Source: Candidatus Woesearchaeota archaeon (GTDB lineage Archaea; Nanobdellota; Nanobdellia; SCGC-AAA011-G17; JACPNG01). Taken from it: 64,000 nt of DNA. The translations under genes were made by a program, and so were the position numbers. Positions 1,491 to 48,614 of this stretch are shown here, in pieces. Location: positions 1,157-65,156 of the forward strand of contig JACQNI010000078.1 of assembly GCA_016203135.1 (NCBI GenBank). The letters are read 5' to 3'. The number at the start of each line of letters is the position of its first letter. Positions within the stretch are counted from its first letter, which is position 1. Under the pieces are notes generated by a model, which was not told the origin of the DNA, searched no databases, and saw only the letters and a list, made by a program, of their open reading frames with translations.

Positions 1491-3203
1491 ATGATTAGAC
1501 AGCCAATAGTTGTACTGGTAGGCCATGTAGACCATGGCAAGTCAAGTATTTTAGAGAAATTAAAAGATATATCTATATTAAAATACGAGCCTGGAGCAAT
1601 AACCCAGAAGATTTCTTCAGTCAACATACCATTTGAAGACATAAGAAGAATCTCAGGAAGCCTATTAGATCAATTAAAAATAAAATTGACAATTCCTGGT
1701 TTATTGCTCATAGACACCCCAGGACATGCAAGCTTCACAAATTTAAGAAAACGAGGAGGCAGTATTGCAGACATAGCAATTCTTGTTGTGGATATTAACG
1801 AGCTAGTAAAACCGCAGACAGAAGAGGCAATAGAAATTTTAAAAGCATACAAAACACCATTCATAGTTGCACTAAACAAAATAGATTCTATATATGGCTG
1901 GAAAACAACCAAAGACCAATTAATAAAAAGCATTTCAACCCAAAGTGAAAATGTAAGAAAAAAACTTGATGATCAGCTTTATACCCTAGTCGGAAAACTA
2001 CATGGTTTTAACATAACATCTGAAAGATTCGATAAGATAGACAATTTTACAAAGCAGGTTGCAATAGTTCCTTGCAGTGCTAAGACCGGTCAAGGTATTC
2101 CAGAAATAGTAATGGTAATAGCTGGACTAGCCCAGAAATATCTTGAAGATAAATTAAAAATCCATGAAAAAGAAGAGACAAAAGGGACTATTTTAGAAGT
2201 AAGGGAAGAAAAGGGCTTAGGAATAATCATAGAGGTAATAATATATAGCGGATCATTAAAAGTAAACGATCAGCTTGTAATAGGCAACATAGACAAGCCA
2301 ATTATAACAAGAGTAAGATCATTATTTGTAAAAGACAATAAATCATTAAAGAATTCCAATCAAGTAAATGCAGCATCCAGCGTAATTATATTCGCGCCAG
2401 ATATAAAAGAAGCAATTGCAGGCATGCCCTTGATTGTAGCAAATAAAAATACAGAAGAAGCAGAAAAAAAGGTTCAAAAAGAAGTCCAGGAAATAGTTAT
2501 AGAAAGGGATCAAGAAGGAATAATCATAAAGGCAGATTCTCTCGGTAGTTTAGAAGCCTTAATTTCTTTGTTAAAAGAAAAAAACATTCAGATAAAAAGG
2601 GCAACAATAGGAAACATAACAAAAAAAGACATAACAGAAGCCCTTGCATCAAAAGATCCATTAAACAAAGCAATCCTTGCCTTTAATGTAAAAAGCGAAG
2701 ACAGCTCAGTAAAAATAATTTCAAGCGATATAATATACAAGATAATTGAAGATTTTGAAAAATGGAGGGAAGATTCTAGTAAAAACATAGTAAAAACAGA
2801 GTTAGGAGAATTAACCCCTTTATGCAAGATCGAATTGATGGAAGGTTATGTATTCAGGCAAAGCAACCCAGCTGTTATCGGCGTTGATATAATTTCAGGC
2901 AATTTAAAAACAAATATCACTTTATTAAATCTTGAAGGCAAAGAAATAACTCGAGTAAAAAGCATTCAGCATGAAAAGAAGAATATAAATGAAATAGCTT
3001 CAGGAAATCAGGTAGCCCTAGCTTTATCAGGAGTGACCATAGGCAGACAAATAAAAGAAAAAGATATACTCTATTCAGACCTGACAGAAGAAGAATTCAA
3101 GAAATACAAGAAATTAAAAAGATTTTTAAATCCTAGTGAAATCAAAATACTAAAAGAAATAGCAGAAATCAAAAGAAAGGATAACCCATCTTGGGGAATG
3201 TAA
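1491..3203 (+). CDS. infB: translation initiation factor aIF5B / IF-2 (GTPase)
   Basis: GTPase motifs GHVDHGKSS (G1), DTPGH (G3), NKID (G4). Domain order and length typical of archaeal aIF5B. No intein. Confidence 0.9.
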   Translation: MIRQPIVVLVGHVDHGKSSILEKLKDISILKYEPGAITQKISSVNIPFEDIRRISGSLLDQLKIKLTIPGLLLIDTPGHASFTNLRKRGGSIADIAILVVDINELVKPQTEEAIEILKAYKTPFIVALNKIDSIYGWKTTKDQLIKSISTQSENVRKKLDDQLYTLVGKLHGFNITSERFDKIDNFTKQVAIVPCSAKTGQGIPEIVMVIAGLAQKYLEDKLKIHEKEETKGTILEVREEKGLGIIIEVIIYSGSLKVNDQLVIGNIDKPIITRVRSLFVKDNKSLKNSNQVNAASSVIIFAPDIKEAIAGMPLIVANKNTEEAEKKVQKEVQEIVIERDQEGIIIKADSLGSLEALISLLKEKNIQIKRATIGNITKKDITEALASKDPLNKAILAFNVKSEDSSVKIISSDIIYKIIEDFEKWREDSSKNIVKTELGELTPLCKIELMEGYVFRQSNPAVIGVDIISGNLKTNITLLNLEGKEITRVKSIQHEKKNINEIASGNQVALALSGVTIGRQIKEKDILYSDLTEEEFKKYKKLKRFLNPSEIKILKEIAEIKRKDNPSWGM

Positions 3204-3878: not shown

Positions 3879-4011
3879 ATATTCATTCTTAAAAATATTA
3901 ACTTCAGCCAAAACAAGATTAAGAGAAATAAAGTTTATAAAGAAAACAATTTATCCTTTTTTAACTCACAATGACAAAATCAATAAATTCGATCAATTGG
4001 AGGCAAATGAC

Positions 4012-5289
4012 TTGAATAAAAAAACCGTAGAAGGGTTGCAACCCACAATTAACATTGGTCTCGTTGGACATTAAATAATTAAGGTTATTTAAACCAAAGA
4101 CGTAGACAATGGTAAGACCACCCTGCTTCAAAGAATTAGTGGAATATGGACAGACACCCATTCTGAGGAAATAAAACGAGGAATAACAATAAGATTAGGA
4201 TATGCAAACACAGCCTTCTATAAATGCAGCAAGTGCAAAGATCTAGATATATATAAAACCAAAGACATATGTGATATTCATAAGACAAAATGTGAAGTCA
4301 TAAAAAAAGTTAGTTTTGTTGATGCCCCTGGACATGAAACATTGATGGCAACTATGCTTTCTGGTGCAGCAATAATGGATGCAGCATTGCTGCTTATAGC
4401 TGCAAATGAGCCATGTCCACAACCACAAACAAAAGAGCATCTTATGGCCCTAGAAATTATCGGAATAAAAGATATTATCATAGTTCAAAACAAAATAGAT
4501 CTAGTTTCAGAAGAACAGGCTAAGGAAAACTATAACCAAATTAAGAATTTTGTAAAGGGAACAATAGCAGAGCAAGCACCAATAATACCAATATCAGCCC
4601 AGCATAATACAAACATAGATTATTTAATAAAAACAATAGTTGAAAATTTCAAGATTCCAAAAAGAGATCCAAAAAAACCACCAATAATGTTGATAGCAAG
4701 AAGCTTTGACATTAACAAGCCAGGAACAGAAATCAAAGACTTGGTGGGAGGAGCTTTAGGAGGATCTTTAAAGCAGGGGATTCTTAAGCAGGGCGATGAA
4801 ATAGAAATAGTTCCTGGTTTAAGGAAAGAAAAAGACAACAAAATAATATATCAGTCAATAAAAACAGAGATAGTAAGGATAATGACAGGAAAAGAAGAGA
4901 TTGACCAAGCATCTCCAGGGGGATCCATTGGCATTTCTACCAAACTTGATCCAAGCATTGTAAAAGCAGATTCATTGATAGGCAATATAATAGGCCATCC
5001 AGGAAAACTGCCAAAAGTCTGGGATTCTTTTAAGTTAAAGCAGCATCTTCTTGAAAAAGTAGTCGGCCTAAAAGACGAACTAGCTGTTGAACCCATAAAA
5101 AAAGGGGAAACTTTGATGTTGAACGTAAATTCAGCAACAACAGTAGCAACAGTAACAGATCTTAGTAAAGATAAGATAAATCTAAAATTAAAGCTTCCTG
5201 TTGCTGCTGATTTAACAGATAGAATAACTATTTCTAGATTAATTGGATCAAGATTTAGATTGATTGGCTGGGGCCAGATTGAGAATTAA
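4012..5289 (+). CDS. eif2g: translation initiation factor aIF2 gamma subunit, reading frame interrupted by a 30-nt in-frame insert carrying two TAA stops
   Basis: Upstream frame translates to ...VEGLQPTINIGLVGH, then insert TAAATAATTAAGGTTATTTAAACCAAAGAC. Frame then resumes as VDNGKTTLLQRISGIWTDTHSEEIKRGITIRLGYA..CSKC..CDIHKTKC..VSFVDAPGHE and continues into the 315-aa ORF 4342..5289. Collinear with archaeal aIF2-gamma, including the zinc ribbon. Probable TTG start at 4012; 3997 or 4036 are alternatives. No in-frame ATG upstream. Confidence 0.85.
4072..4101 (+). other. 30-nt in-frame intervening sequence inside the aIF2-gamma P-loop (GHVD^NGKT); perfect 8-bp hairpin 4071-4078/4085-4092, two TAA codons
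   Basis: Removing exactly 30 nt (three equivalent placements, 4070-4099 to 4072-4101) restores a canonical G1 motif GHVDNGKT. Stem TTAAATAA / TTATTTAA with loop TTAAGG. Confidence 0.6.
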
Positions 5290-19704: not shown

Positions 19705-19817
19705 TGCTCCGGCCGAGATTCGAACTCGGGTCTCCGCCTTTCTTTGTTTTTGATTAAACCTTTCTAAAAAGTTTACTCGAAAGGGCAGAATCCTTGGCCG
19801 GACTAGACTACCGGAGC
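19705..19817 (-). tRNA. tRNA-Glu (anticodon UUC) with 38-nt intron at the canonical 37/38 position
   Basis: Sense sequence GCTCCGG..TAGTCCGGCCAAGGAT.CTGCC-CTTTCG-[38 nt]-A-GGCGG-AGAC-CCGAG-TTCGAAT-CTCGG-CCGGAGC-A. 7-bp acceptor, T-loop TTCGAAT, anticodon stem CUGCC/GGCGG. No encoded CCA. Confidence 0.75.
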
Positions 19818-22940: not shown

Positions 22941-23825
22941 ATGAAAAAGGTATTTTTAGCTTTTGTATTTGCTATATTGCTAGTTGTTTCTGTTTATGCT
23001 GCCTCAAGGGGAAGTGGTGGGAGTTTAGATGATGATGTTAATGAAATTGATGCAGACGATAATGATACAGATAGTGATGATTCATTAAATGAAGCTAGAG
23101 GAAATATGATAGAAGAAAGGGGAGAGATTAGAGAAGAAAGAAGACAAATTAGATCAAAGATGATGGAAGATAAGTTAAAGACTCCTAGGGCTATGGAAAT
23201 AAGAAGAAAATTAAATGATATAAAATTAGAAAGAGTAGAAACTTCTGGACTAAGGTGTTTTGAGGAAGATGATATAGAAGATAGAGTGAGATGCAGATTA
23301 AATCTAAGTAGGGTAGAGCTTAGAAAAGAATACAAGCTTGAATATTTGCCTGAAGAATGCAGAACTATTGATAATATGACTGAAAGACAGAATTGTGTAA
23401 GAAGATATGCTCAATTGCAGAAATGCTGGAAGTTTATTGGCGATGAAAGGATGAGATGTGTTGATCATGAATTGAACATAACAAAAATTAAGGAACAAAA
23501 AAGGGAATGCAATCTTTTAGATGAAAATGAAAAACAAGAATGTAGAAAAAGGCTAAAAGACAATGTTTATCATAGAATTAAGTTTAAGTTCTATAATCTT
23601 GAAGATAAGGCTGAAAGATTTTTAGATAGGGGATGGGTTGATAATGAAACAGTTGCAGTCTTTATAGCTAATTTAGAAATAAAAAAGGCAGAATTTAATG
23701 AAGCAGCAACAAAAGAAGAAAAAAGGAAAGTGATATTGGAAGTAAGAGAATTATGGAAAGAATTCTTAAAGAGTGTAAACTGGCCAGACAAAGAAGTGGA
23801 GGAAGAAAATGAAACAGAAGGTTAA
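22941..23825 (+). CDS. secreted acidic, cysteine-containing protein
   Basis: Signal peptide MKKVFLAFVFAILLVVSVYAAS. Asp-rich segment, several Cys, coiled-coil-like K/E/R repeats. Start moved to the ATG at 22941. Confidence 0.45.
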   Translation: MKKVFLAFVFAILLVVSVYAASRGSGGSLDDDVNEIDADDNDTDSDDSLNEARGNMIEERGEIREERRQIRSKMMEDKLKTPRAMEIRRKLNDIKLERVETSGLRCFEEDDIEDRVRCRLNLSRVELRKEYKLEYLPEECRTIDNMTERQNCVRRYAQLQKCWKFIGDERMRCVDHELNITKIKEQKRECNLLDENEKQECRKRLKDNVYHRIKFKFYNLEDKAERFLDRGWVDNETVAVFIANLEIKKAEFNEAATKEEKRKVILEVRELWKEFLKSVNWPDKEVEEENETEG

Positions 23826-24003
23826 ATTAATTTTTATAGTTTTAGTCGCTGCAATGTTTTTAATAGGATGCACTCAGAAACAAGAAGCTAAGGATAAAGA
23901 GCCATCTATGGAAGAAATACAAGGCGGACAAGTAGCTCCTGAAGAGCTTGATGATGAATTAGATGGGGCTTTACAAGATCTTGATGATATTGAAGAGCCG
24001 TAA
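23809..24003 (+). CDS. small acidic lipoprotein (64 aa)
   Basis: Signal peptide with lipobox LIGC followed by an acidic tail. Confidence 0.4.
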   Translation: MKQKVKLIFIVLVAAMFLIGCTQKQEAKDKEPSMEEIQGGQVAPEELDDELDGALQDLDDIEEP

Positions 24004-24045
24004 GGTTTTACAGATAATTTTATAAATTAAACTTCTAAATTTATT

Positions 24046-24894
24046 TTAAAGGGATTGTCGGCTAGCTTGGTTTAGGCTTCGAGGTTTGGGACCTTGCGAC
24101 CCAGGTTCAAATCCTGGCAGTCCCATTATCTTCAATAGACCCTCTTCCTTTCTTTTATTGCTAAAACCAATATTCTTATAGTATATTTCCAAATATTTTC
24201 TTGGAATTCTAAGCAGATACAGGTCTTTTCGATTATCTCTTTTTCTTACTGTTATTCTAGGAACAATCTTCAAAATTAAAAGTATCTTTCTAAGGTCTTC
24301 TATTAGCTCCTTGGAAACAACCCCACAAGAGATATTTATGTTTTCAACAAACCCATCTGTATCCATTAAACCTCTAGCAAAACCAAATAAGAATGATTTA
24401 TTATGAGATTCTATCTCTTTGGCAAGACGTATTGAGTATACTTTTCTGTTTTCCCAATGCAAATAATCTTTAATAAAATTTGATAGATTTATTGAACTTA
24501 TTCTTATTTCAAATGAACTAGGATTTCCTTTATAATTTTTAACATACACTTTTGGATTGAGCCCCATTTTCTTGAAAAGAGAAACTAAATAATTCTTATA
24601 TTCTTTATCATCTTTATAAGAAAGGAAATACCTTGTATAGTATTTACTACTCCTACCATTCTTATCATGGTAATATGAACCATCCCCCGCAAACGAACCT
24701 ATAATTTCCCCTTTTATGAAGTCTGGAAATAGTAGATTAATTTGTTTTACTCTTTTTACTTTTTTATTTACATTTAGATTATACTGGATAGTACTAAGAG
24801 TAATATTTGTTTTCTTTTGTATCTTTCTTAAACTTAATCCATTTTTAGAAAGATTTTTTATTAATCTTATCTGAATTTTTGATAATCTCTTCAT
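24046..24894 (-). CDS. LAGLIDADG homing endonuclease (double-motif, with N-terminal HTH)
   Basis: Motifs IIGSFAGDGSYY and FLFGFARGLMDTDGFV. N-terminal HTH LSLRKIQKKTNITLSTIQ. Last 27 codons are antisense to tRNA-Pro. Confidence 0.8.
   Translation of the reverse strand: MKRLSKIQIRLIKNLSKNGLSLRKIQKKTNITLSTIQYNLNVNKKVKRVKQINLLFPDFIKGEIIGSFAGDGSYYHDKNGRSSKYYTRYFLSYKDDKEYKNYLVSLFKKMGLNPKVYVKNYKGNPSSFEIRISSINLSNFIKDYLHWENRKVYSIRLAKEIESHNKSFLFGFARGLMDTDGFVENINISCGVVSKELIEDLRKILLILKIVPRITVRKRDNRKDLYLLRIPRKYLEIYYKNIGFSNKRKEEGLLKIMGLPGFEPGSQGPKPRSLNQASRQSL
24051..24125 (+). tRNA. tRNA-Pro (anticodon UGG)
   Basis: GGGATTG acceptor pairs with CAGTCCC. Anticodon arm CGAGG-TTTGGGA-CCTTG. T-arm CCAGG-TTCAAAT-CCTGG. 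Discriminator A. 75 nt, no intron. Confidence 0.75.
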
Positions 24895-24913
24895 ATAACT
24901 TAAGAAGATTTAA

Positions 24914-24927
24914 CCTTTATATATTTT
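24914..24927 (-). promoter_or_regulatory. TATA-box-like element (AAAATATATAAAG on minus strand) about 25 nt upstream of the homing endonuclease start
   Basis: Archaeal TATA-like motif at the expected distance for a leaderless transcript. Confidence 0.3.
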
Positions 24928-24957
24928 TCGACCCCGGTTCAAATCAGGGCAGCTCCA
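24926..24957 (+). repeat. degenerate direct repeat of the tRNA-Pro 3' end (variable loop, T-arm, acceptor 3' strand); 26/32 identical
   Basis: TTTCGACCCCGGTTCAAATCAGGGCAGCTCCA vs tRNA-Pro 24094-24125 TTGCGACCCAGGTTCAAATCCTGGCAGTCCCA. The homing endonuclease gene lies exactly between the tRNA and this partial copy. Confidence 0.5.
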
Positions 24958-25088
24958 CTTTTTATGACTAATGCTTAATATCTTGCCATAATATCTGTGT
25001 AATTATATAGGAGATGTTTGAATTAGGAATAGATGCGAAGTTTAATCAAACAAATGATTTAAATAACCAATAACATTATCAAAATAAA

Positions 25089-25514
25089 ATGAATAAGAAA
25101 ACGGTAGCACTTATTTTACCGTATAATAATAAATTTGAGATTATTATGCAGAAAAGAAAAGGCTTCGTAGACAAACCTGTTGAAGTAGACTATGGTTTTT
25201 TTGGCGGTCATTTGGAAGAAGGAGAGACAGTAAAACAAGCATTAAAACGGGAAATAAAAGAAGAATTAAATATTGATATAAGAGATATTAAAAGTCTAAA
25301 ATTCTTTAATAAGTATCAATATGAAGTCAAAGAAAAAGAAATTTTAGTCGAACTCTATGTCTTTTTATGTAAGATGAAAGATGTTAAAAATATGAAAGTA
25401 AATGAAGGGAAACCCGCAACACTTAAACTAAGAGAAGCAATTAATCTTAATATATCTAAGATGGATAAAAAAATATTGGGGGAGGTTTATAATTTTCTGT
25501 TTAAAAAGTCATAA
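25089..25514 (+). CDS. NUDIX hydrolase
   Basis: Nudix box GGHLEEGETVKQALKREIKEELN. Confidence 0.75.
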   Translation: MNKKTVALILPYNNKFEIIMQKRKGFVDKPVEVDYGFFGGHLEEGETVKQALKREIKEELNIDIRDIKSLKFFNKYQYEVKEKEILVELYVFLCKMKDVKNMKVNEGKPATLKLREAINLNISKMDKKILGEVYNFLFKKS

Positions 25515-25604
25515 ATCTGTTAAAAAAGTATCTCTCTTCTGATAATTATTAAACAAAGTCCAATTCTTGCAAAAATTTAAATAGGAGTAATAATTTTTAA
25601 ATAG

Positions 25605-25751
25605 ATGACAAGAGGAAAACATCATGAAAAAAGAACAACTTTACCAAAGTTTGTGGAAAAAAGTACTGAAGGAAAGTGCAAATATTGTAATAAACACGTA
25701 AAAAATCTAGAAGCGCATATAAGATCAAGACATAAAGACAAGTTAAAATAA
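25605..25751 (+). CDS. small C2H2-like zinc-finger protein (48 aa); not in the supplied ORF track
   Basis: MTRGKHHEKRTTLPKFVEKSTEGKCKYCNKHVKNLEAHIRSRHKDKLK, with C-x2-C-x9-H-x4-H spacing. Basic, intergenic. Confidence 0.35.
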   Translation: MTRGKHHEKRTTLPKFVEKSTEGKCKYCNKHVKNLEAHIRSRHKDKLK

Positions 25752-25755
25752 ATTT

Positions 25756-26769
25756 CTATGTTAAAATCATTGCTTCTAACTCTTTTGATGCATCTACCAG
25801 GCTTAATTTACTCCCAAACATACCTTCAATAAACAAAGGAGATAAATTAGAAAGATGTCTTGGACCTATTAAATCCTGCCAGAAATCAATTTTAATATTA
25901 TTTTCTCTATCTTCTATTACTTCTTCTAAATTGTTTTCTTCTTTCAGATCATAACAATCTGCTAGATCTGTCAATTCACCAGCAGTTGTTATGTTTCCAG
26001 TGCTTGGACAAAGATGTAAATAGCCTAATTCTATTAATTTATAGAAGGTTTTTCCAGCTGTTTTTGCTATTTCAATAATCCTTTCATTTAATTTATATTT
26101 ATCTTCTGGATCTCCTAATCTAAATGGAGACAAAGGGGCTCTTATGATGAAACCAGCATCATCATCTTGCTTAAAAGCCCCAAGTGGATTTTTACTTATT
26201 GGTAAATCTAATTCAGCTTTAAGATATTCTTCTAGCAAATCAAGATTTGACATAGAGAATCTATTCTCTAAATTATTTTCAGAATCAGATCTTGATAAAA
26301 TTATGCTAGATGCAACTTTTAATCCTGATTTTAACCATTCTTCCTTATATATTCTTCCTAGCAATAATGGCATTGGTGTATTTAAGCCTGAATTAAATGC
26401 TTTTTCCAATATTAAATATTCTCTTTCAGCTTTCTTAAAAAATGTTCCAAAGAGTATATCGTTAGATGAATGGAGCCATAGGCACATATCTTGACCGTCT
26501 TGGCCATATCCTTTTACTTCAATAAATCTTGAAGGATTATTATAGACTTTATATGGATAAAAAAATGTCCTGCCCCAGCCTACTTCTCTTTGGGTCATTA
26601 ATATTCCAGAGAGGGAATATTCTTTTTTTTCCTCAAATGTTAAAAACTCTTGAGAATATATTTTTTCTACAATAAATTTTTTAGGAGTTATTGTATGTTT
26701 GCCACTATAGTAAGGATGATTTAAGACATAGTTTAATTTTGAGTTTATAATTTCATCTAATTTTTGCAT
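25756..26769 (-). CDS. hypothetical protein (337 aa)
   Basis: Long ORF. No motif I can assign with confidence. Confidence 0.4.
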   Translation of the reverse strand: MQKLDEIINSKLNYVLNHPYYSGKHTITPKKFIVEKIYSQEFLTFEEKKEYSLSGILMTQREVGWGRTFFYPYKVYNNPSRFIEVKGYGQDGQDMCLWLHSSNDILFGTFFKKAEREYLILEKAFNSGLNTPMPLLLGRIYKEEWLKSGLKVASSIILSRSDSENNLENRFSMSNLDLLEEYLKAELDLPISKNPLGAFKQDDDAGFIIRAPLSPFRLGDPEDKYKLNERIIEIAKTAGKTFYKLIELGYLHLCPSTGNITTAGELTDLADCYDLKEENNLEEVIEDRENNIKIDFWQDLIGPRHLSNLSPLFIEGMFGSKLSLVDASKELEAMILT

Positions 26770-48518: not shown

Positions 48519-48614
48519 CGCCGAGGCAGGGATTTGAACCCTGATATCCTTGCGGAAACCGGTTTTCGAGATTCGCCTTTTATCCAGCGCACTACCGGAT
48601 TATGCGACCTCGGC
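48519..48614 (-). tRNA. tRNA-Ser (probable anticodon CGA), long variable arm, 12-nt intron at non-canonical position 30/31
   Basis: Sense sequence GCCGAGG-TC-GCAT..GTGC-G-CTGG[ATAAAAGGCGAA]T-CTCGAAA-ACCGG-TTTCCGCAAGGATAT-CAGGG-TTCAAAT-CCCTG-CCTCGGC-G. Collinear with the intron-less tRNA-Ser(GCU) at 51888..51971 apart from the 12-nt insert. Confidence 0.65.

Follow-up and report, generated by a model that had tools for sequence, protein, structure and literature searches.

Here we examine a 64-kb stretch of a Candidatus Woesearchaeota archaeon genome (contig JACQNI010000078.1; hereafter the window, in whose positions coordinates are given), in which a free-standing homing endonuclease gene (HEG) of the LAGLIDADG type converges on a gene for tRNA-Pro(UGG), and in which the 3' end of that tRNA gene is found a second time on the far side of the HEG. 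The resident tRNA-Pro(UGG) gene is complete at 24051..24125 on the plus strand (ARAGORN; Rfam RF00005, 50.3 bits, full length), has no intron and does not encode CCA. A putative TATA box read from the sequence, TTTATAAA at 24019..24026 (+), ends 25 nt before tRNA position 1, and a similar box, ATTTATAAAA, lies upstream of the tRNA gene in L072, a relative without the HEG (labels of this kind denote comparison loci from metagenome-assembled genomes (MAGs) and metagenomes). We infer that the box in the window would serve as the promoter of tRNA-Pro.

The HEG is an open reading frame (ORF) of 282 aa at 24046..24894 on the minus strand, and its residues 257-282 are an antisense reading of tRNA-Pro. 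Its candidate promoter, likewise read from the letters, consists of a TATA box and an A-run at 24916..24928 (-): the TATA-like TTTATATA (24916-24923), which is TATATAAA on the HEG strand, has its nearer edge 22 nt away from the start codon (ATG, 24894), and an A-run resembling a transcription factor B recognition element lies upstream of it at 24924-28. The spacing of the TATA box fits an archaeal promoter with a leaderless mRNA, and the two elements would be expected to act as one.

A displaced and decaying copy of tRNA-Pro positions 44-75 lies at 24926..24957 (+). It reads TTTCGACCCCGGTTCAAATCAGGGCAGCTCCA, the same positions of the resident tRNA read TTGCGACCCAGGTTCAAATCCTGGCAGTCCCA, and the two are identical at 26 of 32 positions (81%), the longest exact run common to both being 11 nt, namely GGTTCAAATC plus flanking bases. 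On both strands of the window this is the sole other match of at least 21/32 to the tRNA tail; the best tail match in 200 whole-window shuffles averaged 18.8/32 and never exceeded 22/32, and when the 110 nt upstream of the HEG ORF were aligned locally, z was 9.3 relative to shuffled controls. Alignment of both copies places the duplicated segment of the resident gene at 24097..24125 (+), about tRNA positions 47-75, that is, the end of the variable loop, the T arm and the 3' strand of the acceptor stem. Straight after the discriminator base of the remnant, a T-run read from the sequence at 24959..24963 (+) is likely to represent the terminator of the original tRNA gene, now orphaned.

The copy does not belong to any further complete tRNA. 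A permissive Rfam scan (E up to 10) of 23000-26000 found the resident tRNA alone, a scan of the whole window at gathering thresholds gave no match at 24926-24957, ARAGORN reported no second complete tRNA around the copy, and as an RNA the copy has no stable fold (z = +0.5). The insert between the repeats is ~830 bp long, with the LAGLIDADG gene as its sole ORF; it contains no tyrosine or serine recombinase gene and no other element gene, and in the surroundings of the HEG the Rfam scan detected neither a group I intron nor any other RNA family. Much of this arrangement had been described in a first-pass annotation made from the letters and an ORF list. Its tRNA gene and its 81% copy are confirmed by the tests above; its minus-strand HEG with an antisense tail is found as described, with 26 antisense codons where it had counted 27; and its TATA-like HEG promoter is present in the sequence, the promoter role being a prediction.

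The endonuclease and its homologues beside tRNA genes

The protein matches Pfam LAGLIDADG_3 (PF14528) at E = 5.8e-19 and 68.6 bits, against a cut-off of 22.5. It has two LAGLIDADG motifs, each closed by a catalytic acidic residue that is invariant or nearly so among 36 aligned homologues: G70-D71-G72 are invariant in motif 1 (IIGSFAGDGSY), and in motif 2 (ARGLMDTDGFV) D178, T179 and G181 are invariant and D180 is kept in at least 90%. An AlphaFold2 model from the 36 homologues (predicted local distance difference test score, pLDDT, 91.1; predicted template modelling score 0.79) has an N-terminal helix-turn-helix (HTH) domain at residues 1-45, with three helices within 6-41, then a linker of lower confidence, a double alpha-beta-beta-alpha-beta-beta-alpha core at residues 58-257 in which helices and strands follow each other as expected, and an unstructured read-through tail at 258-282, of which residues 272-282 have pLDDT <50.

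In Foldseek the top matches of this model are I-DmoI-DNA complexes (best 2vs7, E = 1.8e-10, template modelling score 0.77; range 0.76-0.78), followed by PI-PfuI, I-SceI, I-Tsp061I and I-OnuI, and model and matches agree on a pseudo-dimeric LAGLIDADG fold whose beta-sheets form a DNA-binding saddle. A profile search of PDB sequences connected the second LAGLIDADG domain with PI-PfuI and the N-terminus with HTH and transposase PAI domains. Judged by its residues and modelled fold, the nuclease is apparently intact, and nothing suggests a loss of catalytic capacity.

An exhaustive search of 1.84 billion cluster representatives returned 140 clusters at E <= 1e-10, mostly full length, and homologues at 37-60% identity come from MAGs of Woesearchaeota, Pacearchaeota and 'Nanoarchaeota'. 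The comparison loci were read by eye and with BLAST, as many intron-bearing tRNA genes escape ARAGORN. Some 30 homologues adjoin tRNA-Pro(UGG), and essentially every close homologue does so. The homologues are 258-271 aa long and lack the long tail of the window protein; many of them close with ..ARI followed by the stop, ..GFEP.. or ..DLN.., the three frames of GGATTTGAACC, the reverse complement of a T loop. Such antisense-T-arm peptides (..RI plus stop, GFEP, DLN) form the C-terminus in at least 19 of the 50 close homologues and in 16 of the 105 full-length representatives.

Two layouts were observed. In the convergent one, found in the window and ~17 other loci, the conserved C-terminus stops 8-12 codons past an invariant K249, at the 3' end of the tRNA. 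In the tandem one, found in ~13 loci, the HEG precedes the tRNA on the same strand, with its stop codon in a conserved TTAAAAAGC box that precedes tRNA position 1 by 23-30 nt (L020 2205-2240; L035 ~685-715; L038 ~385-415; L021 ~4785-4820; L018 ~3020-3050). Going by its sequence and place, this box is evidently the tRNA's own TATA box, and with the HEG stop inside it the 3' end of the HEG is fused to the tRNA transcription unit in the tandem layout as well. Distant branches at ~33% identity are convergent with tRNA-Glu (L023, L037, L039) or tRNA-Gly(GCC) (L025, L036), or stand in tandem with tRNA-Asp (L040). The HEG may thus be found upstream of the tRNA in sense orientation or downstream of it in antisense, always with its 3' end facing the tRNA, and the tRNA has the direction of its neighbour genes, except in an inverted unit in L009. 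Layout does not follow a rough protein tree; neighbour-joining suggests that the tandem layout arose at least twice.

The genomic setting is conserved. ORF clustering of 22 loci gave a block comprising FtsZ, SecE, Spt5, L11, tRNA-Pro with or without the HEG, L37Ae, prefoldin beta, UPF0147 and SepF, and the locus is syntenic in ~20 lineages. HEG identity and host-protein identity are positively but loosely correlated (Spearman 0.38), with pairs that are discordant in both directions. In L009 (4001-4963) and L015 (4001-4767) the HEG is split into two ORFs by a frameshift or stop, or truncated, as expected in the decay phase of the homing-endonuclease life cycle; in both, the adjacent tRNA-Pro has an intron at the boundary of T stem and T loop. 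A scan of IMG/VR for viral carriers gave only four weak partial LAGLIDADG matches and no copies on viral contigs.

Displaced tRNA ends and sites without the endonuclease

T-arm remnants like that of the window were found in L022, L015, L076 and L079 beside tRNA-Pro and in L037, L039 and L023 beside tRNA-Glu. They are placed alike, the reverse complement of the 5' half of the T arm abutting an A-run and TATA box 27-58 nt before the ATG, and the full order of T-arm remnant, A-run, TATA box, ~22-25 nt and ATG recurs in L022, L015, L076, L079, L037 and L039. Against shuffled sequences, six of the eight remnants reach p <= 0.01 each (the window's own locus, L022, L015, L076, L037 and L039), and L079 and L023 are borderline. 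The remnant of L039 is Glu-type and extends through the acceptor strand, and that of L015 has the same unusual TTCGAA loop as its resident tRNA. Since the remnants at tRNA-Glu loci are Glu-type, they are best understood as fragments of the local tRNA gene and not as an operator or motif inherited with the protein. Similarity always starts at about tRNA position 47-49 (7 loci), which points to this place as the insertion junction.

L072 is a close relative of the window: the neighbouring 337-aa protein is 86% identical in the two. It shares with the window the lipoprotein gene, tRNA-Pro and the 48-aa zinc-ribbon gene, which in L072 stand in this order, the last directly after the tRNA, and it has no HEG; around the insert in the window, a NUDIX gene is found besides the 48-aa zinc-ribbon gene and genes for lineage-specific proteins. 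Synteny is therefore broken between relatives, L072 having the flanks and the tRNA and no HEG. In three more HEG-less lineages (L082-85, L086-89, L092) tRNA-Pro lies directly upstream of L37Ae, in two of them between L11 and L37Ae. Other candidates for empty sites were set aside: L073-L075, found through homologues of the 337-aa neighbour (45-51%), have a different context without tRNA-Pro, and the L37Ae loci L081, L090 and L093-L095 are uninformative, with no tRNA-Pro next to L37Ae.

The tail of the L072 tRNA-Pro is TTGCGACCCCGGTTCAAATCCGGGCAGCCCCA. In a comparison of limited power, as it uses one relative and a 32-nt segment, the window remnant agrees with this tail at 29/32 positions and with the resident tRNA at 26/32, and it carries the L072 base at all three discriminating sites (51, 63, 69). 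Its private changes are three (46, 62, 70), one of which, C62A, breaks the T stem. As the remnant sides with L072 at all three sites, it preserves the native state, and the resident 3' end is either foreign or has diverged since. The resident tRNA differs from that of L072 at positions 4, 5 and 69 of the acceptor stem, at the T-stem pair 51:63 (C:G to A:T) and at one D-loop base, and it lacks the intron that L072 has after tRNA position 3. Given the differences on the 5' side of the acceptor stem (4 and 5, complementary to 69) and the missing intron, the whole tRNA may have been co-converted.

A NUDIX hydrolase gene at 25089-25514, just beyond the remnant, is also absent from L072 and marks a second indel at the same spot. 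It was considered as cargo of the inserted unit and rejected: it lies outside the repeats and has no homologue beside the HEG in other loci. The difference from L072 may go back to co-conversion, to a separate insertion of this gene or to its loss from L072.

Some loci without a T-arm remnant, namely tandem loci together with L009 and L028, have another motif, CACTGG(A/T)C, 40-70 nt upstream of the HEG start (L009 3925-3965; L028 ~845-890; L007 ~3935-3965; L019 ~1640-1660; L020 ~1340-1360). It is sometimes a direct repeat, ACTGGACA..ACTGGACA, and may be an operator or other regulatory site. An 11/15 match to a reverse-complemented T arm in L019, L020 and L005 failed alignment against the loci's own tRNAs and is better read as this motif. 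In three convergent loci (L008 3718-3930, L010 3716-3928, L014 3712-3927) a gene for a 70-aa HTH-like protein, divergent from the HEG, lies between the HEG and L37Ae and occupies the region where other loci have the remnant.

A probable homing cassette and its alternatives

Based on these observations, we consider it probable that the window holds a free-standing LAGLIDADG homing cassette specific for the tRNA-Pro(UGG) gene and inserted at about tRNA position 47. Presence and absence at one site, sporadic occurrence and decayed copies, all of them marks of a mobile gene, were found in the family; cleavage, the exact target, immunity and the direction of gain or loss are what we infer. The segment at 24097..24125 is proposed to be a replacement 3' end brought by the cassette, or a copy that has diverged to immunity.

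The mechanism we propose would run as follows. A monomer resembling I-DmoI, with an added N-terminal HTH, would cut a naive tRNA-Pro gene at about position 47, near where the variable loop meets the T stem. On the left of the cut, repair would use the tRNA of a cassette-bearing donor, and the right end, which starts with positions 47-75, would pair with the donor's remnant, so that the intervening DNA is copied in: a functional 3' end of the tRNA, or all of it, followed in tRNA sense by the antisense HEG and its TATA promoter. The recipient's own positions 47-75 would end up on the other side, next to the HEG promoter, and degenerate. The resident tRNA would escape re-cutting through a T-stem 5' strand unlike that of the naive allele or, in relatives, through an intron that splits the same stretch, and the remnant would escape through lack of the left half of the site. 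A remnant that matches naive alleles would provide homology right at the break, and its retention would be favoured at the level of the element; such retention would account for remnants of distant lineages sharing one sequence while the resident tRNAs differ. Were the repeats to recombine, the cassette would be lost cleanly, which makes L072 either a never-invaded or a cured site.

Several points weigh against this account. L072 is the one closely related empty site, and it could equally represent cassette loss by recombination between the repeats; it also lacks the NUDIX gene, and its AT-rich spacers cannot be aligned, so that the indel is not cleanly that of the cassette. The target and the position of the cut are deduced from the junctions alone. 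Within the predicted site of ~22 bp the window's resident tRNA differs from the naive L072 allele by one base (C51A), which may be too little for immunity. Remnants are detectable in just ~6-8 of some 20 convergent loci, those of the others having perhaps decayed in AT-rich DNA. None was detected in any of the ~13 tandem loci, the origin of which the model does not explain. Finally, in light of the strong synteny within DPANN archaea and the positive, if weak, correlation of HEG and host identities, much of the family's history may be vertical.

For the tandem loci, a mirrored cassette was considered and rejected: ten of them were searched upstream of the HEG for a displaced piece of the tRNA 5' end, under strict as well as permissive scoring and in either orientation, and nothing significant came up. 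The tandem layout may be a case of simple 'intronless homing' by a gene that neighbours its target.

The vertical signal is also the starting point of a different explanation, in which the gene is a domesticated, vertically inherited resident of the L11 / tRNA-Pro / L37Ae locus, encoding for instance a DNA-binding regulator or a tRNA-gene-associated factor, and the T-arm-like box is its operator, retained through the protein's binding to DNA of T-arm type. Consistent with this are the synteny of ~20 lineages, the positive correlation of HEG and host identities, the absence of copies from viral contigs and the fixed position of the box against the TATA box, with an 11-nt core, CCCCGGTTCAA, identical in five lineages whose proteins are 44-60% identical; the tandem loci, moreover, have their own conserved and operator-like upstream motif, CACTGG(A/T)C. 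An operator would not, however, be expected to extend as the window copy does, over 32 nt and beyond the T-arm box through the acceptor strand to the discriminator and a T-run, and the copy in L039 includes the acceptor strand too. Copies match the adjacent tRNA, being Pro-type by tRNA-Pro and Glu-type by tRNA-Glu; the gene is present or absent between close relatives, occurs in pseudogenised form and changes sides of the tRNA between lineages without following the rough protein tree; and its catalytic residues are conserved as in active nucleases. We regard domestication as unlikely on this evidence.

The 3' ends of tRNA genes are classic integration sites, and elements driven by tyrosine recombinases insert in the 3' part of a tRNA gene, restore its end and are flanked by direct repeats. 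The window insert resembles them in all of these respects, and it could in principle be the scar of a larger virus or plasmid that entered the 3' end of tRNA-Pro and lost everything except the HEG, with the repeats as attL and attR and the NUDIX gene, also absent from L072, as left-over cargo. Yet the ~830-bp insert contains the HEG alone, with no integrase or element gene, the repeats are 81% identical without an identical core, and the NUDIX gene lies outside them. Independent decay of larger elements, furthermore, would not produce a minimal unit that recurs across lineages and on other tRNAs with the C-terminus of the HEG fused to the tRNA end and the remnant to the HEG promoter, and we find this origin very improbable. 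A third possibility starts from the split and heavily interrupted tRNA genes for which DPANN archaea are known: the stranded piece might serve as the 3' half of a trans-spliced tRNA, or be what is left of a separate tRNA gene nearby that has no relation to the HEG. Many tRNA-Pro genes of the family have 1-3 introns, two of the four tRNA genes in the window are interrupted, and a TATA box lies just upstream of the piece. The distance of that box is right for the HEG and wrong for the piece, however, and at a distance of 800 nt there is a complete tRNA-Pro. The piece starts at positions 44-47, which is no known split site; in place of the intact T arm and acceptor strand with a pairing leader expected of a 3' half it has a T stem broken by C62A, no leader helix, no fold and no match to a tRNA model; and its acceptor strand is Pro-type, with the piece as a whole at 29/32 against the relative's tRNA-Pro. 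We find either form of this idea scarcely credible.

The homing cassette that we favour retains most of what the first-pass annotation had proposed. An element in the 3' part of tRNA-Pro, carrying nothing but an HEG with its own promoter and leaving a displaced 3' end behind, is the geometry seen in the comparisons, and the suggestion of a minimal tRNA-targeting selfish element agrees with the recurrence of the compact unit in many lineages and on a second tRNA species. The same recurrence, with tRNA, convergent HEG, TATA box and T-arm remnant together, speaks against the annotation's other suggestion, the remnant of a larger integration. Its term 'attL/attR-like' holds for the duplicated tRNA end and fails for the recombinase that it implies: with no integrase and non-identical repeats, the mechanism is likely double-strand break repair (homing) rather than site-specific recombination.

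Predicted target, possible immunity and known systems

LAGLIDADG genes normally lie at the centre of their own ~22-bp site, which would place the target in the tRNA at roughly positions 37-58. The site probably spans the 3' strand of the anticodon stem to the T loop, including GACCCCGGTTCAA, and as predicted it would unite the anticodon stem and variable loop, which are isoacceptor-specific, with the T arm.

The distribution of T-stem sequences is suggestive of the pattern expected if carriers need a cleavage-resistant tRNA allele. Taking GACCCCGGTTC as the naive tRNA-Pro allele, uninterrupted ACCCCGGTTC is present in all five tRNA-Pro remnants (each of which reads CCCCGGTTC(A/G)A) and in three of the four HEG-less tRNAs, against one of 28 HEG-linked resident tRNAs (Fisher p = 0.003, with kinship ignored and four HEG-less lineages). 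The sole HEG-linked tRNA with ACCCCGGTTC, that of L038, has a 37/38 intron. Most other HEG-linked tRNAs have substitutions in the T-stem 5' strand (e.g., CCCAGG, CCCCAG, TCCAGG, CGCAGG), and L006, L007, L008, L009/L028 and L015 have an intron directly after it.

Introns are frequent in these genes. One to three interrupt the tRNA-Pro genes of L005, L006, L007, L008, L009, L015, L016, L018, L024, L072, L076, L077, L079 and L082, most of which were overlooked by ARAGORN. The intron after acceptor position 3 in L005, L072 and L076 starts with ACT every time; the other positions are the D arm (L077), 37/38, the junction of T-stem 5' strand and T loop, and the inside of the T loop (L082, 55 nt). 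T-arm introns at ~53/54 are found in L006, L007, L008, L009/L028 and L015 (tRNA-Pro) and in L036 (tRNA-Gly), and L039 (tRNA-Glu) has one within the T loop. The minimum-free-energy fold of the L008 precursor has the cloverleaf arms and an intron hairpin stacked on the T stem, without a clean bulge-helix-bulge. It is possible, though on balance doubtful, that an arms race between tRNA genes and tRNA-specific HEGs, with T-arm introns as immunity alleles, generates the interrupted tRNA genes of DPANN archaea. Introns in the T arm would then split the DNA target while splicing restores the tRNA, and 37/38 introns would play the same role.

By analogy of function, the closest counterpart of the cassette is the mORF of fungal mitochondria, described in atp6 of Allomyces macrogynus, in atp6, atp9, cox2 and nad3 of Glomus sp., in atp9 of Rhizopus and in cox2 of Mortierella (PMC3630166). 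An mORF arrives as an endonuclease ORF with a foreign copy of the host gene's C-terminus, which displaces the native one, and it is diagnosed by a native remnant closer to a close relative's copy of the gene than to the resident one (PMC3630166). The window shares the order of host gene, inserted replacement 3' end with a LAGLIDADG (in mORFs alternatively GIY-YIG) ORF, and displaced native 3' end; its remnant is nearer to the relative (29/32 against 26/32), and its host gene stays functional. It differs in that the host is a chromosomal tRNA gene of an archaeon, whereas mORF hosts are mitochondrial protein genes, and in that the HEG is antisense with its own promoter instead of fused in frame and co-transcribed; there is also an extra N-terminal HTH, and the duplicated segment is ~29-32 nt. 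The duplicated 3' end and the remnant closer to a relative are thus found and an in-phase, co-transcribed ORF is not, and with an RNA host gene and an opposite-strand ORF under its own TATA box the cassette is mORF-like in function without being a member of the mitochondrial group.

Other known systems share fewer of these features. I-DmoI and other archaeal monomeric LAGLIDADG enzymes are intron-encoded, in rRNA genes, and PI-PfuI is intein-encoded. The window protein has their two-domain LAGLIDADG fold and conserved acidic residues and, like I-DmoI, would have a conserved stable-RNA gene as its target; unlike them it is free-standing, is 17-22% identical and has an added HTH_38/PAI-like domain, and its predicted target is a tRNA gene where that of I-DmoI is an rRNA gene. 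T4 SegB, a free-standing GIY-YIG phage enzyme in a tRNA gene cluster, spreads by 'intronless homing', and we know of no duplication of the target gene's end described for it. It resembles the window's HEG as a free-standing nuclease gene beside its presumed target in a tRNA gene region, which would be inherited by co-conversion of flanks; the window's family differs in being LAGLIDADG, chromosomal in DPANN archaea and found on no viral contigs in IMG/VR. LAGLIDADG genes also occur in a group I intron in the anticodon loop of cyanobacterial tRNA-Arg(CCU) (PMC13011429). There, too, a LAGLIDADG gene is tied to one tRNA species and the function of the gene is preserved, but the window's tRNA is uninterrupted and keeps its function by duplication of the 3' end, not by splicing. 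The elements driven by tyrosine recombinases, discussed above, differ from the window insert in having a recombinase and an identical core, and the cargo of the insert is a single nuclease gene.

Homing endonucleases have been described in introns, inteins, phage genomes and the 3'-end cassettes of fungal mitochondria. Full-text searches that covered free-standing LAGLIDADG genes, tRNA genes and DPANN, Woesearchaeota or Pacearchaeota gave no description of the present family, which is apparently an undescribed chromosomal family of archaeal HEGs, each branch tied to one tRNA, in which a duplicated 3' end preserves tRNA function. It accounts for the recurrent unannotated 'hypothetical / LAGLIDADG' gene by tRNA-Pro in MAGs of Woese-, Pace- and Nanoarchaeota and for the odd C-terminal tails of those ORFs, which are translated antisense tRNA. 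It also offers a set of natural nucleases whose targets in tRNA genes, ~20 bp long, can be predicted. The old hypothesis that introns and fragmentation defend tRNA genes against mobile elements can now be tested, since naive, immune and intron-bearing alleles have been identified; were the arms race true, it would provide direct genomic evidence for introns and split tRNAs as protection, with a nuclease and not an integrase as the agent.

Two further observations concern tRNA genes more widely. The interrupted tRNA genes of the window lie at 19705-19817 (-) and 48519-48614 (-); both were detected by Rfam and overlooked by ARAGORN, and one combines a canonical intron with an acceptor stem of Glu type (GCTCCGG...CCGGAGCA). 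Distant relatives of the core, at 25-33% identity, lie just upstream of tRNA-Ser or tRNA-Val on the same strand in 19 of 31 loci, examples among the metagenome loci L046-L071 being L047 (2501-3198), L060 (2501-3156) and L064 (2501-3208). At least L060 is bacterial, as a tmRNA is present, and judging from these neighbourhoods the linkage of LAGLIDADG and tRNA genes may extend well beyond DPANN archaea.

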